From Candidatus Micrarchaeota archaeon (GTDB lineage Archaea > Micrarchaeota > Micrarchaeia > Norongarragalinales > UBA8480): DNA of 46,426 bases. Made by a program: the position numbers. Location of the stretch: assembly GCA_043805855.1 (NCBI GenBank), contig JAZDHP010000010.1, positions 1 to 46,426 on the forward strand, written 5' to 3'. Positions 3,001-9,000 of this stretch are shown in pieces (position 1 is the stretch's first letter; each line of letters starts with the position of its first letter).

Positions 3001-6000
3001 AATATCGCTCAATGTAGTGCTGGCATGGTTCAGTACAACGTTTCTTACACAAACAGCGGAAACACTACAATAAACGGCGTCGTTGCGTCAATTGCAAATA
3101 TTCCAAGTAACTGGCAAGTTATTGCGCCAATGCCAGTGAACGTTGCACCGAATGAAACGAAGAATTTCAGCGTTTTCATTAAACCAAACGGCGAAGTTAG
3201 CGCAGAAGTTGTCCCAACGCTTTTAGTAAAAGACGGCAACGGTAACGTTTTGCAACAGGAGACGCTTCCAAGCGTTAAGCCAACAAGCGCAACTGGTATG
3301 TTCCTAGCTGGTATGTTCGGTTTTAGTGGATTGCAATGGATTGCCGGCATATTGCTAATTGCACTTGCAATTGCAGTAATGAGCGCACGTGCGTCACTCA
3401 ACAGAAGTTAACTTTTTCTTTTTATCTTTTATTTTTTTTATAATTTCTTTTATATTTTCTAATTTTCTATTTAAGGTAATTGATCAGTTTCGCCTTGCGT
3501 GTATTTTAACTTTAGTTTTTTTCTAAGTTCGTCTGTAACTTCAAAATGTTCTATATCGGTTAAAGTAATTCCTTTCGAGTGGCTAAACCACTGCGTATCG
3601 TGTGGTGTTATTCCGTGTTTTTCAAGCTCTGCTTGAGCGTGTCTTTCTTCGAAAGTTGCGGGCCTGGCGTATAAGGCCGAGCTATGTTGCCCTTCGGCGT
3701 ATTGGTAAACTATTTTGTGTTTTTTGTCACTGCCTAGGATAACTGCAAGCGGTTCTTCTGCGGTTATGCCTGGTATTTGTAAATTGTTTATGTGGCTCGC
3801 TAGTCTAGCTTCAGAAATTGGTTCAAGTTTGTAGCTTTTATTTCGGCTTTTTTCCTTTATAACGAACTTTAACGCCGGATCTATTTTGCTTCTTGCTATA
3901 GCCGCGCGCTTTCGTATTTCCAAAATCTCATAATTTTCAGGTAAGAAGTGTTCAATTGAGATTTCGTGCCCAGGTAATTTTACTATTCTAGTATTTGTGT
4001 GCGCGTATGGCTTTCTAACTTCAAGCGCGTTAACTTTTGTCATTTGCTATTAGTTACCATCCGTAGATTTTTTCAATTGCTTTTTCTAGTAGGATTTTCA
4101 GCACGATTGCTTCGTCTTCGCTTATTGGAAGCGCAACGCTGTTCAATTTACCATCTTGTCCCTGGGTTGACAATTTAAAGTAGTAGCCGGTTTGCATTTT
4201 GGAAAATGAAACAGTTGAGTTGCGCGTGTCGCTGGACACGGCATAGCCGCCTTTCGATGGGTCGTGGAACAATTCGATTGTTGGCAATTTTCCGCTAAGT
4301 ACAACGAGCAACTTTGCAATGTCGGTTACTGCCATTTTGAAAGATAATTTTGTGCTCCAGTCAAAGCTTTGTGGTGCATTTGAGCATCGAGCTTCGCTCG
4401 ATGACTCAGACACAAGCTCGCGAGCTTGTGCTGATTGCTTTGCTGCTTCGACAAATACGCTTTTCTTTTCTACATTAAAGTCAAACTGCACTGCTGAGCC
4501 GTTGCCGTTTTTGTTCGGCTTGTAAATTTTAAATTTCTTATCAAAATTAGACGGTGCAGATTGCGGTTGGTAAGTTTGAGTTGTTTGGGTTGGGTTTGGC
4601 CGCGGTGCAGTTGTAACCTGTGTTGTTGGTTTTTGTGGTATTGGGGTACTGATAGTTTGCGTTGGTTTAGTTTGCGGCGTTTGTGTCGCTTGCATTGGCT
4701 TAGCTGGCATAGGCTGTGGCGTTGCAAGTTGTTTATTGAATTGGTTTAGTGTTGGTTGTATTTTATTTGCTGGTTTCGTTTCCATTTTCTTCAATCACCA
4801 TTTGCGTTGCGATGCCGATTATTTCCTTAGCGTAGTCTTTTGGGAAGCGCGTTGACGCGGCTACGTTGTGCCCGCCTCCTGAGAAGCCGTACTTTTCAAA
4901 CTCTTTGCGCAGTATAGTTATAACTTTATTTGCAGAAAACCCAACTTGTGCAGCTTCTTGGTTTGCCCTGAATGAAAGAGAATCTTGTGTGTACAATAAA
5001 GTTGCAGTTGGTGCGTTACTGTTCTTTTCTACATAATGATTTTGCACGGCGTTGTGTAGCTTTCCAATAGAAGGATAAGTATTTTTCTTCACTAAACCGC
5101 TGGCGTCACATATATAGAGCGCGAATTTGCCAGTGTGTTCTTTTGACTTGCGTAGCGTTTTTTCCAACGCGTTTCTCATGTGCATTTGCTCTTCGTGATA
5201 GAGTTCGTTTGACAAATGCCTATCGCGGCTAACTTTTTCGTAATACTCTAGTGAATACGGTTCGTCGGCCTTTACTGCTAAATAGTCCAGCGCAACTGCT
5301 TCAGGAAAGAATTCTTTTAGCCTGAAAGAGCTGTGGTCACCTTGCATTGAGATATTACACAATGGGCGTATTTCTTTTTCCAATTCCAGCGCAAAATAGC
5401 GCGTTAGTTCAAAAACTAACAGCGCCGTGTTGTAACTTGATGGCTCTTCGCAGTTTTTCAACGCGAACGGTGACACGAATACTTTGAGTGCTGGTTTCTT
5501 TGCCGGTGGGTGGTGGTCAATGCACATTACTTCGAGCGTCTTCGCTGCTTCTGTTACATTGTAAACGCTTTCCTCGTTTGCCCCGTGGTCGAGGAGAATA
5601 AGTAAGCTGCCTTCGACTAAAGTTGACGTATCTTCCTCTGCGTCTCTATCGCGATAAACTGCTCCGTTTGCCTCTTGCGCGCGTAGAAATAGCGGTGCGC
5701 CTCGCTGTTTTGCAAAGCTTTCAATTGCTTTTTTCAACATTATCCCAGCGCATATGCCGTCGCAATCTCCATCGTAGCGTATTTTTATCTGCTTCATTGA
5801 CAATACCGCGTTGGCTATTTCCTGCGATGCGCGTTGGAATTCTCCTTCCATTTCTTTCAGCGAAGGTGCGTTGTTTAATGGTTCCAAGTGCGGCGGTTCA
5901 AAATAAGTGAATTTTTCAATTTCTTTTTCTATTTTGTCGTCTTTCCCTGGTTCTATTTTCTCAACGTTGTCCGCTTGGAATAAATAACTCGCGTACTCGC

Positions 6001-9000
6001 CTTGCATTTCGTAGATTTTGCCATCTTGTAACTCTTCCATTGTTTCAACTAGCGTGAACTTTTCAGAAGTGCACGCGTAGTAGCGCATTGTTGACATTGC
6101 GTCTCTTTTTATTATTTTTACGACGATTTTCATCTTTCTTGGTATCACGAGGGTTTTTATTTTTACAAGTAGCTCTTTATAGATATAATTGTACACTATT
6201 TTAGAGAAGGTGCTAATTAAATGGAAGCTATTATTGAAAACTATCGCCGTGGAAGGCACACTGAGTACTGTGACCAGTTTATTGTATTCATTGAAGACTG
6301 CGATTCCCTTGCAAAGGCAGAGAAGCTAGTCGGCAAGCAAGTTACTTGGAAAACGCCATCTGGAAAATCTATTCTTGGTAAAGTCGCTGGAACGCACGGC
6401 AACGGTGGCAAAGTTAGAGTAAAGATGGAAAAAGGTTTGCCAGGCCAAGCAGTTGGAACTAAAATTGAAATCGCCTAGAAAGACAAACGCGCTTATTTAT
6501 GTCTAAATTAACAAACTTGGCAAACGCGGTAATTAAGGAAGGCAACTCTATATTTACAATTCCAAAACAATCCCTAGTTGACCCCCACCACTGCACTGTT
6601 TTTTACAACCCTGCAATGGAATTCAACCGCAATTTATCTGCGCTGTTTCTAAAAAGCTGCCTTGACTTTACAAAAATTAAACCCAATTTGCTATTCGATG
6701 GATTTTGTGGCGTCGGAGTAAGGGGAATCCGCTATGCAAAAGAATGCGATGCAGCTAATGTAGTGTTGTGCGACGCAAGCGACGCAACTATTCCCTATGT
6801 TAAGAAAAACGTTGCCGTCAATAAATTGCAGAAAAAGTGCAAAGTAATGCACATGGACGTCAACCAAGCGCTTTCCTCGCTTCCATTGTGCGACGTTATA
6901 GAAATGGATCCGTTTGGTTCGCCTATACAAAACATCGACTCAGCGTTTCGCCGCGGAAAACCACACTTTATTTTGTCACTAACGTTCACTGACTTGGCTA
7001 ACTTGTGCGGTGGGCACAAAGACGCGTGCAAACGTTACTACGACGCCGCTTCGATAAACTGCGAGTTTTCACACGAATTAGCACTGCGTATTATCTTGCA
7101 ACGCGTTGGAAATATTGCTTCAATGCACGAGTTCGGCATCACTCCTCTAGTGTCGTGGTACCAGGGGCATTACGTAAAGGTTTTCCTTCTGTGCGAAAAA
7201 GGCGCGGCAAAAGCCGACAGCAATTTCAACAAAATTGGGTACGCTTGGCTGTGCCGTAATTGCAATAGCCACGGCGTTGGTAAAGACGCGGTAAGTAAGT
7301 GTCCTTCGTGCGGTAATAAAACTCAAATCGCTGGCCCGTTGTGGATTGAAAAGTATTCCAACAAGGAAATTATTCGCAATGCACTGGTGGAATTGAACGA
7401 GAGTAAAATTTACGAAGAGAAAAAGAAGCAGCAACTCGCCACTTTTCTCGAGCTGTTAATTGAAGATATTGAAGAGCCGCTTTTCTACTCGCTTCCGGAA
7501 CTATGCTCCAGCAAAAGCATTGGCGTACCGAAAACAGAAACTTTCCTTACTAAATTACGCGGCGCTGGTTTCAAAGCAACGCGAACACACTTTACACCTT
7601 ATGGATTTAGAACAGATGCGCCGCTAGAAGAAATTTTGAAAATTATTTAGTTGAATTTGCGTGTTTTGCTTGTGCCCCTATATTTTGCAATTTCTTTTAT
7701 AGTCCTTAATAAAGCAGAGTGTAACCTACGGTCAAATCTAGCGAGTTCTTTGCGGGTAACGAGGGGTTTTTCTAAGTAATTTGGATGTACTTGAGTATTT
7801 GGAAAGAATATGTCCGGAATTCTAAACGCTTGTTTTTGTCTCTTTCCGGCAAAGTAATGTTCGACTAATATATTGTCTCCAGTCCATTTTTGCGTGCTAA
7901 GCACAAGTTCAACTCCTGCACCTCCAACTCTTTTAATAGCGTTGTAGAGCCGAGGTGGGACGCGGTTATTGACGATTATTCTTAATTTAGGAGCGGCCGG
8001 GTTCCTCAAGAACGCTTGACTAACTGAAGTTCCATGAAAGGTAATTACTTGCGCAGTGATGCCCGCTCTTTTTAGATATCTTGCTATTTTCCAGTCACTT
8101 GGTATTTGTTTAGCTTTTTGGTTTTGTTCACTCACAGTAGCTCTAGATGGTTTCAGTTCATGCCAGAACCCGTGCGGAGTCCAAGCTGCTGGAATGAGGG
8201 CGGTTACTACGCCGTGCTTTTCCCATTCCATGTGGTGGCGAACCGCTAAATTGCGCGTGCCTTCATTTAAATGTCGTCCAGCTAAAATCACTACTTTTCT
8301 TTTTTCCGGGGGTAGTGATTTAATTTGTGCTGCGAATTCTCGTAAATTTCCTAGTTTTAATAGCATAAAGAGCTTACGCTAGCGTTCTAAAAAAGGTAAT
8401 TGCTTAGCGGCGAGTAACTTAGCAATTCACGTATTTTGAAACTCTTACGTTTGGCCGCGTGTGCTTGTAAAAGGTTACGTGTAACCCGCTGCTTACGCCG
8501 TCGGTTCTAACTACTCCAAGTAAATTTCTTTTCAATGCAATTCTAGCGACCACTTCTCTAATTGTAGCTTCGTGGCCTAGGGTCATCCTGCGTTTTAACG
8601 GTGCAAAGAACATTGTATTTTCGTGAACGCCAATTGTATTGTGGGTTAAAACTTTTGGGGTTCTTTTCAACTCTTTTATAACTAAGTCAACAGCATGTAC
8701 TGGCATTTTTTCCACCTTGTAAGCTTACAGCTAGTTAGTTTAAAATTGCTTTTGCGCTACGGCCTAAGCGCTTTGTTAAACTACGGCTTTTCGTTCCTTA
8801 TTTGTTTTATCGCTGTTTTTCCCGTATCTTTAAAAATTCTTTTGATAATTTCCCTGGCGCTGCGGTAATTCTCATAACCGGGCTTAGACTTTTAACTGCT
8901 CTAGGGTCAGTCATTTTAGGTAATATTCGTATTGGCGACACTTCAGGTTTTCTCAGTGCTTCTTCTAATCTTTCTCTAGAAATTGGCGTTATTGGTCTAT

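Follow-up and report, generated by a model that had tools for sequence, protein, structure and literature searches.

The gene at positions 4054..4785 on the minus strand of the window (the whole stretch of 46,426 nucleotides that was analysed) encodes a true Whirly-family protein, in a groundwater-type archaeon with a genome of 1.03 Mb. Most likely, this gene shares a transcript and is coupled in translation with the gene upstream of it, which would encode a HAN-like DHH 3'-5' exonuclease. The Whirly protein probably helps to handle single-stranded DNA during repair. The whole proposal, that of an accessory single-strand binder expressed with this nuclease and acting in repair beside RPA, has in our estimation an even chance of being right.

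An earlier note had recognised a Whirly protein here, and this assignment is confirmed. With the PF08536 HMM the protein scores 40.8 bits against a gathering score of 23 (E 2.4e-10), the match opening only at profile position 41. The predicted model contains two four-stranded antiparallel sheets in succession with a helix after each (beta4-alpha, twice), which is the fold of the solved Whirlies. We also compared the core blocks, using HMM alignments to 4koo and 1l3a and, via the relative P0121, to StWhy2, and observed that (F/Y)DW..K, FHDP and a C-terminal GW are common to the archaeal and the solved plant proteins. In the Whirly alignment A2, W67, H98 and W167 are invariant; the wide family alignments A3, A4 and A5 were too divergent for pattern scans.

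The archaeal protein is 18-26% identical to the plant Whirlies (StWhy1, that is PBF-2 p24, StWhy2 and AtWHY1/2/3; PF08536; PDB 1l3a, 3n1h, 4koo, 4kop and 4koq). Unlike them it has no transit peptide, its gene is chromosomal and overlaps a nuclease gene, and the N-terminal strand reads YKPNK-x-G-x-G-SAVQ in the archaeal clade where the plant proteins have KGKAAL. Because the first strand does not carry the KGKAAL of plant WHY1/2/3, we filed the protein in the Whirly family and not in the plant subfamily. According to one study, the second lysine of KGKAAL is required for plant Whirly to assemble into a 24-mer (PMC3245945).

The fold is also shared with trypanosome guide-RNA-binding MRP1 and MRP2 (PF09387; PDB 2gia, 2gje), which gave the top Foldseek E-values and nearly equal Z values (16.5-16.9). 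However, these two form an RNA-binding heterotetramer and show no significant sequence match to the archaeal protein, in which an HMM search for PF09387 found nothing at E<=0.01. Neither does the predicted model resemble the OB barrel of RPA and SSB. The archaeal Whirly would be expected to bind nucleic acid and to form a tetramer.

The 243 codons and stop of the gene fall into two parts. The core domain (4057..4545, about 163 residues) holds the two beta-beta-beta-beta-alpha repeats and ends with the family-wide GW. It is preceded by a P/Q/T-rich low-complexity tail of about 80 residues in the translation (4546..4785), which varies among relatives and is of differing length in P0004, P0006 and P0031. 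This genome's copy alone has a loop insertion, with approximate bounds 4366..4434, that is missing in 15 of 15 aligned relatives and is predicted to be disordered (pLDDT about 50-63 at core residues 41-60, below 50 at residues 54-58). The earlier note had considered the gene call to be some 85 codons too long, but there is no start codon at that point, and reading the sequence of the tail (4546..4785) revealed no internal start codon. A Shine-Dalgarno-like hexamer GGTGAT (4794..4799), presumably complementary to the 3' end of 16S rRNA, stands 8 nt ahead of the ATG at 4785, inside the last part of the DHH gene. Starting instead from a TTG that lies in frame further upstream, at 4794, would give 246 codons. 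The two genes, both on the minus strand, overlap by 23 nt (4763..4785) in an operon-like junction.

The upstream gene (4763..6133, minus strand; PF01368) encodes a DHH/DHHA1 phosphoesterase of 456 residues, with an N-terminal five-stranded beta-barrel and a catalytic core that contains all motifs. Its best match is PfuHAN (PDB 5yh1), with E 2.6e-18 by sequence. For the model (pLDDT 90.5), Foldseek gave E 3.1e-25 and TM 0.71/0.74 to 5yh1, and 1e-15 to GAN/RecJ. The motifs DxD, D, DHH, D and GGGH, which are the catalytic motifs of the DHH/DHHA1 core, are invariant in the 12 sequences of alignment A7, and the sequence thus indicates that the enzyme is catalytically intact. It differs from HAN in having neither the DnaJ zinc finger nor the S1-like domain: instead of the DnaJ-Zf, S1-like and OB architecture, a 59-residue barrel alone precedes the DHH core, and the score against the full-length HAN model (NF053577) is 100.9 bits for a cut-off of 840. 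The earlier note had described this neighbour as RecJ/GAN-like. In the sense of a replisome component this label must be dropped, as the protein does not qualify as GAN or archaeal RecJ-Cdc45, a group defined by its HMMs (NF053576 and NF053575, here 37.5 and 25.8 bits) and by a CMG-interaction domain (PF21763), and the genome's true archaeal RecJ/GAN lies on another contig (C29:11990-13405), where it reaches 394 bits with NF053576 for a cut-off of 360 and carries DHH_CID.

The HAN study describes PfuHAN as a Mn-dependent 3' exonuclease that acts on both ssDNA and ssRNA and gains activity from extra N-terminal nucleic-acid-binding domains; it also reports that a HAN knockout renders Haloferax sensitive to MMS and that HAN is commonly present only in Euryarchaeota (PMC6158738). 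A parallel to the gene pair is provided by bacterial SSB and RecJ, likewise a single-strand binder with a DHH-family exonuclease and a disordered tail on the binder; a fold search with the DHH model matched, among others, the solved complex of RecJ, DNA and an SSB C-terminal peptide (5f56). By analogy with this pair, the Whirly protein would coat or present ssDNA exposed in repair. It would be a compact chromosomal member of its family, whose two-repeat domain of about 160 residues may bind single-stranded nucleic acid, with a floppy P/Q/T-rich tail ahead of it. The two systems are not alike in detail, since SSB has an OB fold and a C-terminal acidic tip whereas the archaeal binder has the Whirly fold and an N-terminal P/Q/T tail.

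We then examined distribution and gene order among the 68 genomes of the order. A Whirly gene, in each case above the PF08536 cut-off, is present in 40 of them and missing from 28; the gene is therefore common but not universal, and calling it order-wide, as had been done, was an overstatement. Linkage was counted over 41 Whirly-bearing genomes, that is these 40 and one (G044) recognised by profile. Fifteen of the 41 have the HAN-like DHH gene upstream of Whirly, on the same strand and no more than 1.5 kb away; in 10 of these 15, at most 71 nt lie between the stop of the DHH gene and the Whirly core. In seven genomes, which belong to another of the order's families, the upstream gene is an NrnA-like DHH paralogue, related to a protein on contig C55 of our genome (33-37% identity, E 1e-48 and 7e-40). 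Between it and Whirly lies a DNA glycosylase gene (HhH-GPD) in all six Whirly-bearing genomes of one genus of that family. In one other genome, the second gene upstream is of the DHHA1 type. Elsewhere, Whirly adjoins L35Ae/Trm1 with the HAN-like gene at another place (eight genomes), follows TFB directly on the same strand (three genomes of one genus) or stands behind a DUF11-like gene (one genome); the remaining six were outside the tally, on account of contig edges or loci that were not inspected. As gene order is shared by descent, the 15 HAN-linked and seven NrnA-linked genomes amount to about two events and not to 22. Pairing with a DHH gene is commoner than the earlier note knew, though it is not universal: at the eight loci outside the order, neither a HAN-like nor an NrnA-like DHH gene was found within 3 kb of Whirly. 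One of these eight has a DHHA1-type gene 1.6 kb off in divergent orientation. The neighbours at loci outside the order are His_Phos_1 plus GTPase or PAC2. Within the order, the gene is placed on the chromosome by its conserved synteny with L35Ae and Trm1; on account of this synteny, which also takes in the DHH gene, a provirus location for the Micrarchaeota Whirly was rejected.

Such varied neighbours are what one would expect if Whirly needed no partner and, as in plant organelles, protected ssDNA in general, assisted recombination or served as a nucleoid protein, its proximity to DHH genes being an inherited order without function. The differing distributions also fit this idea: the HAN-like DHH gene occurs in 56 of the 68 genomes against 40 for Whirly, including Whirly-less genera (five of five genomes in g22, three of three in g7), and genome G038 has kept the NrnA-like and glycosylase genes without Whirly. 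No DHH neighbour was seen at the viral relatives inspected, RadA is encoded in this genome, and plant Whirlies are reported to stimulate, on their own, the strand exchange carried out by RecA (bioRxiv 10.64898/2026.10.24.761589). On the other hand, two DHH paralogues stand immediately upstream in separate families, for which chance is unlikely at about three DHHA1 genes per genome of about 1 Mb (a rough estimate, without a formal test), and the Whirly gene start overlaps the DHH gene. We regard solitary action as an outsider with some chance, and prefer the repair partnership with the DHH nuclease, in which the Whirly protein would contact the enzyme.

DNA rather than RNA is its inferred substrate. 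Guide RNA is bound by MRP1/2 and plastid RNA by plant WHY1, RNA is also cleaved by HAN and by NrnA-type enzymes, and the neighbouring genes L35Ae and Trm1 are connected with RNA. It is thus conceivable that Whirly binds RNA in turnover or processing, feeding or shielding ssRNA for DHH-type RNases. We nevertheless consider this unlikely: L35Ae/Trm1 are divergently oriented and therefore outside the Whirly operon, the DNA glycosylase placed between nuclease and Whirly in six genomes points to DNA, and the Whirly profile matches the ssDNA binders of plants (E 8.8e-7) better than it matches MRP1 (E 0.78). The TFB gene next to Whirly, together with the Pfam family name 'Whirly transcription factor', might instead suggest a regulator, either a transcription factor or a protein associated with chromatin, which is how potato PBF-2 was originally classed. 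That role is very improbable here, given that the TFB neighbourhood is confined to a single genus, that no DNA-sequence-specific element is evident, and that in plants the organellar ssDNA role is the better supported one (PMC3245945).

The genome was also searched for other single-strand binders. The earlier note had found no canonical RPA and supposed that Whirly might stand in for it. In fact, an RPA-like gene is present some 1.5 kb away from the RadA gene (C29:48810-50054, minus strand). Its product of 415 residues combines multiple OB folds with a zinc motif (C-x2-C...C-x-C) and is recognised by replication factor A models (E 6.6e-20), with scores under their full-length cut-offs. There is in addition an SSB-like gene (C44:17278-17562) of 95 residues with Ssb-like_OB (PF21473, 43.8 bits; SSB models, E 5.5e-19). 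That Whirly works in place of the cell's RPA is consequently not supported. The smallness of the genome and the fact that Pfam names alone do not flag RPA had spoken for a main replicative binder replacing RPA; with both OB-fold genes present and 28 of the order's 68 genomes lacking Whirly, such a replacement is the least probable of the readings considered. Whirly would rather be an accessory binder beside RPA.

Among prokaryotic proteins, the sPC4/Whirly-fold sensor domains of Shedu and Menshen are similar in broad fold and in standing beside nucleases; they are single-repeat parts of fusion proteins with defence nucleases and are identified from their fold alone (bioRxiv 10.1101/2023.08.10.552793; PMC12065111). 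The archaeal protein, in contrast, stands alone, has two repeats, belongs to the family at the sequence level and lies in a housekeeping neighbourhood.

In plant papers up to October 2026, Whirly is still called plant-specific or plant-unique (PMC9070903; PMC11359715; bioRxiv 10.64898/2026.10.24.761589). The earlier note had proposed a prokaryotic clade of a family treated as specific to plants or eukaryotes. The archaeal lineage is real, but it is no small offshoot: the family forms at least 936 clusters at 50% identity (E<=0.001), some of them on viral contigs of about 170 kb, and it extends to uncultured phages of that size and, on weaker automatic labels, to PVC-type bacteria. Our literature search found no publication on DPANN or phage Whirlies. 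None of 81 family members matched a PHROGs phage family, tblastn found nothing in GenBank phages with either this Whirly core or P0054 as the query, and the group of 250-residue Whirlies (A6) had no relative in the viral or genome contigs searched. The viral loci L057 and L059-L061 contain HNH, methyltransferase, HD, REase-like and sugar enzyme genes along with numerous small ORFs of unknown function, but nothing that clearly forms a block for replication or recombination. No Rad52-type annealase gene neighbours Whirly at these four loci.

On the boldest reading, Whirly would not have originated in plants; it would be an ancient family, for the most part viral and prokaryotic, whose single-strand binders team up with nucleases that act on single strands. 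It would serve here as the dedicated ssDNA subunit of a repair module of glycosylase, DHH exonuclease and Whirly, touching the nuclease via its floppy tail, and plant Whirly would come from phage or prokaryotic stock. This joint reading is tentative. Other organellar replication proteins of plants are said to derive from phages (bioRxiv 10.64898/2026.10.24.761589), and the well-supported DPANN clade and the phage and bacterial clusters provide concrete outgroups for the origin of plant Whirly. The archaeal protein, a single-gene version of 160 residues without transit peptides or paralogues, suits biochemistry. Its repeated placement behind two different DHH nucleases, in one case together with a DNA glycosylase, offers a cheap and specific hypothesis, that Whirly modulates repair exonucleases.

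Over its last ~163 residues (4057..4545) the Whirly ORF scores 40.8 bits with Pfam Whirly PF08536 (E 2.4e-10; the curated cut-off is 23). No NCBIfam family covers this protein. In a word-indexed search with the Whirly protein, 21 proteins of 147-243 aa were matched at E ≤ 0.001, the named ones being all Micrarchaeota "hypothetical protein". Sequence comparison with a profile of the core and 15 relatives (A2) was enough to recover the plant Whirlies of known structure: AtWHY1 (E 8.8e-7), PBF-2 (1.5e-6), WHY3 (1e-5), WHY2 (5e-5) and StWhy2 (2.5e-4), with MRP1, a trypanosome guide-RNA binder, reaching E 0.78 only. 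The AlphaFold model (pLDDT 85.2, pTM 0.79) contains two strand-strand-strand-strand-helix repeats, and its best Foldseek matches are MRP1/2 and plant Whirlies (E 2.8e-9 to 1.5e-7), well ahead of Pur-alpha (~1e-3). The motif KGKAAL is described as the hallmark of plant Whirlies in PMC3245945, whereas the archaeal clade carries YKPNKxGxGSAVQ in the equivalent strand and does not have KGKAAL as such. Because of the profile and fold matches and this missing motif, we file the protein in the Whirly family, outside the plant subfamily; the earlier note was thus right to call it a real Whirly protein.

The Whirly ORF, on the minus strand, starts at TTG 4794 or ATG 4785 and has its stop codon at 4054-4056. 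Immediately before it, in the same orientation, comes the DHH ORF, identified by its DHH domain match, which runs from a probable start at ATG 6133 to its end at 4763; 87 nt separate this ATG from the divergent L35Ae gene at 6221. The two genes overlap by 23 nt, so that the Whirly ATG 4785 falls within the 3' end of the DHH gene, and a GGTGAT hexamer stands 8 nt before this ATG. Judged from its sequence, the junction is operon-like and would be translationally coupled. No in-frame ATG, GTG or TTG is present between codon 34 and the domain, therefore the P/Q/T-rich N-terminal stretch (at least 50, probably ~80 residues) belongs to the Whirly protein, and the proposal that the gene call starts about 85 codons too early has to be abandoned. 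Tails of different length are present in relatives (226, 192 and 327 aa).

The copy of this genome has in addition a Ser/Glu-rich loop insertion of ~18 aa between strands 3 and 4 (4366-4434, minus strand), predicted to be disordered and missing in every aligned relative; a similar string, LVSESS, occurs in the N-terminal tail of a relative, P0009. Directly downstream of the Whirly gene and on the same strand, a 190-aa ORF (3471-4043, minus) has no Pfam or NCBIfam match and is restricted to this genus, whose three genomes carry it at 34-45% identity and each account for two of its six locus matches. On the plus strand, 1921-3411 encodes a 496-aa protein whose N-terminus resembles a signal sequence; it has a C-terminal membrane helix and weakly matches Ig-like and NPCBM-associated domains. 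Its gene, which converges on the Whirly block, keeps this place in many relatives.

The DHH neighbour was previously described as RecJ/GAN-like, a description that we correct here. All catalytic motifs are kept, DxD, D, DHH, D and GGGH being invariant across 12 aligned orthologues. Its best NCBIfam model is that of HAN, the Hef-associated nuclease, with 100.9 bits, far under the cut-off of 840, and its best solved relative is the DHH domain of PfuHAN (5yh1), both by sequence (E 2.6e-18) and by fold (E 3.1e-25, TM 0.71/0.74; GAN and RecJ ~1e-15). PfuHAN possesses a zinc finger, an S1-like domain and an OB fold, which raise its activity according to PMC6158738; instead of these, the model of the DHH neighbour (pLDDT 90.5) shows one five-stranded barrel of 59 residues before the core. 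Two further DHH proteins are encoded in the genome, a 332-aa NrnA-like protein and a true archaeal RecJ/GAN (394 bits, cut-off 360) with a CMG-interaction domain. Since this RecJ/GAN is encoded elsewhere and the best matches of the neighbour are to HAN, the neighbour is not the Cdc45-like protein of the replisome.

It was also proposed that the Whirly protein could replace a missing RPA. The same genome encodes a 415-aa protein that combines OB folds with a cysteine zinc motif and is recognized by the replication factor A models (E 6.6e-20; C29:48810-50054, minus strand), and a 95-aa Ssb-like_OB protein (C44:17278-17562). The presence of these two genes means that the Whirly protein is not a substitute for a missing RPA in this genome. 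The RPA-like gene is ~1.5 kb from RadA, which lies within one 851-aa open frame (C29:45036-47282); there profile positions 1-41 and 39-243 of Rad51 match separately, ~1.5 kb from each other, as if an intein or another large insertion interrupted the gene.

Whirly positions in the 41 Whirly-bearing genomes of the order were compared with the HAN-like gene and with all DHHA1 domains, and the loci were then read. In 15 genomes Whirly is preceded, on its own strand and within 1.5 kb, by a HAN-like DHH gene, and in 10 of these the DHH stop is at most 71 nt from the Whirly core. In 7 others the gene upstream on the same strand is the NrnA-like paralogue: it directly adjoins Whirly in one genome of genus g27, and an HhH-GPD glycosylase gene stands between the two in 6/6 genomes of genus g25. 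The link with DHH genes is therefore wider than first proposed, as it involves two paralogues; because relatives inherit gene order, these counts represent roughly two independent events. Elsewhere, Whirly is beside divergent L35Ae/Trm1 (Trm1 only in one genome, G011), the HAN-like gene being distant or on a separate contig (8 genomes), has a DHHA1-type gene, its subtype unclear, at the second position upstream (1), a TFB gene upstream (3; directly and on the same strand in loci L005, L007 and L020 of genus g15) or a DUF11-like gene upstream (1), or is at a contig edge or an unexamined locus (6). Several observations argue against a strict partnership. HAN-like genes occur in 56/68 genomes of the order, Whirly-less genera among them. 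One g25 genome, G038, keeps the NrnA-like DHH and glycosylase genes and lacks Whirly (C1:32000-36000, locus L068); its six sisters have all three in a row. At eight Whirly loci from related families outside the order, neither a HAN-like nor an NrnA-like gene was found within 3 kb; one has a divergent DHHA1-type gene 1.6 kb off, and the neighbours vary (His_Phos_1 with a GTPase, PAC2, others).

Whirly was detected in 40/68 genomes of the order, in 15 of the 22 that are at least 90% complete, and in 20/35 genera. A profile with higher sensitivity, made from 81 diverse relatives (A3) and run on 401 sampled genomes of the phylum, detected it in 42, only 10 of them outside the order; it gave 0/30, 0/94 and 0/83 in three large families (f12, f13 and f14), added within the order one partial copy (genome G044) and found nothing in the sampled Whirly-less genera. 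All 16 loci in the species-genome collection are titled Micrarchaeota or Micrarchaeia. In a FastTree analysis of 310 domain sequences (139 columns, removing only exact duplicates and fragments of fewer than 110 profile positions), the 33 tips that derive from Micrarchaeota loci all belong to a single clade of 70 (support 0.76), whose sister is a group of 8 including one protein named Diapherotrites (joint node 0.993).

The family is far bigger than the earlier note had it: when 1.84 billion representatives were searched exhaustively with a profile, 936 clusters matched at E ≤ 0.001, of which 320 also pass 1e-10 and 15 pass 1e-30; most are stand-alone proteins of 140-175 aa. Among 140 scanned cluster proteins, 85 reach Pfam Whirly (one: MRP) at E ≤ 0.001 and the remainder match no family. 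As leads only, the ESM Atlas offers four unnamed clusters as neighbours of the protein, with Whirly called on 12-24% of members in three; in three of the four, viruses (Uroviricota) make up 56-83% of the few taxa on record. A cluster that it lists for a distant relative, also no more than a lead, is 75% Bacteria, most often Verrucomicrobiota. Direct support for viral members comes from one subfamily (A4/A9), which is encoded on four IMG/VR viral contigs (69.7, 177.4, 167.0 and 172.5 kb), with many members from contigs of 106-183 kb. Prokaryotic species genomes gave one match to this subfamily, located on a Lentisphaerae MAG contig of 9 kb; PHROGs and GenBank phages contained nothing similar to the family. 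That many related proteins come from ~167-183 kb contigs suggests one lineage of large uncultured phages. At IMG/VR loci L057-L061 (69.7-177.4 kb), distant-subfamily Whirly-like genes lie within long runs of small same-strand ORFs, surrounded by HNH, DNA methyltransferase, HD and sugar-modifying enzyme genes. A further group, A6 (P0093, P0098, P0164-P0168, P0192-P0196), of ~250 aa, has an N-terminal Whirly domain and a conserved C-terminal extension of ~100 aa; it is closer to plant Whirlies by profile (E 2.4e-15) than the archaeal clade and was not found in species genomes or IMG/VR.

We propose that this compact Whirly-type protein, in an oligomeric state that we infer, would bind single-stranded nucleic acid. 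An RNA role is possible, as HAN acts on RNA and one partner is NrnA-like; we favour DNA as substrate because a glycosylase belongs to the g25 cluster and the sequence is closer to that of the plant ssDNA binders. Acting on DNA, the Whirly protein may be an accessory to DHH exonucleases in repair, by analogy with bacterial SSB and RecJ, and its disordered tail is a candidate site of contact with the nuclease.

Plant papers call the family plant-specific or plant-unique (PMC9070903; PMC11359715; bioRxiv 10.64898/2026.10.24.761589). Of two fold-level reviews, PMC7549692 does not contain the word "archaea" and PMC13392464 mentions, in one sentence, Whirly/Pur-alpha proteins across the three domains. 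Papers on the Shedu and Menshen defence systems report sPC4/Whirly-fold sensor domains (bioRxiv 10.1101/2023.08.10.552793; PMC12065111). Our literature searches on Whirly in archaea, DPANN, bacteria and phage found no description of stand-alone archaeal or phage PF08536 members; Pfam/InterPro species tables may already list such members. This window adds the count of Whirly across one order, its linkage to a glycosylase and to DHH genes of two paralogous kinds, and the corrected identity of the DHH neighbour, together with the rejection of the RPA idea.
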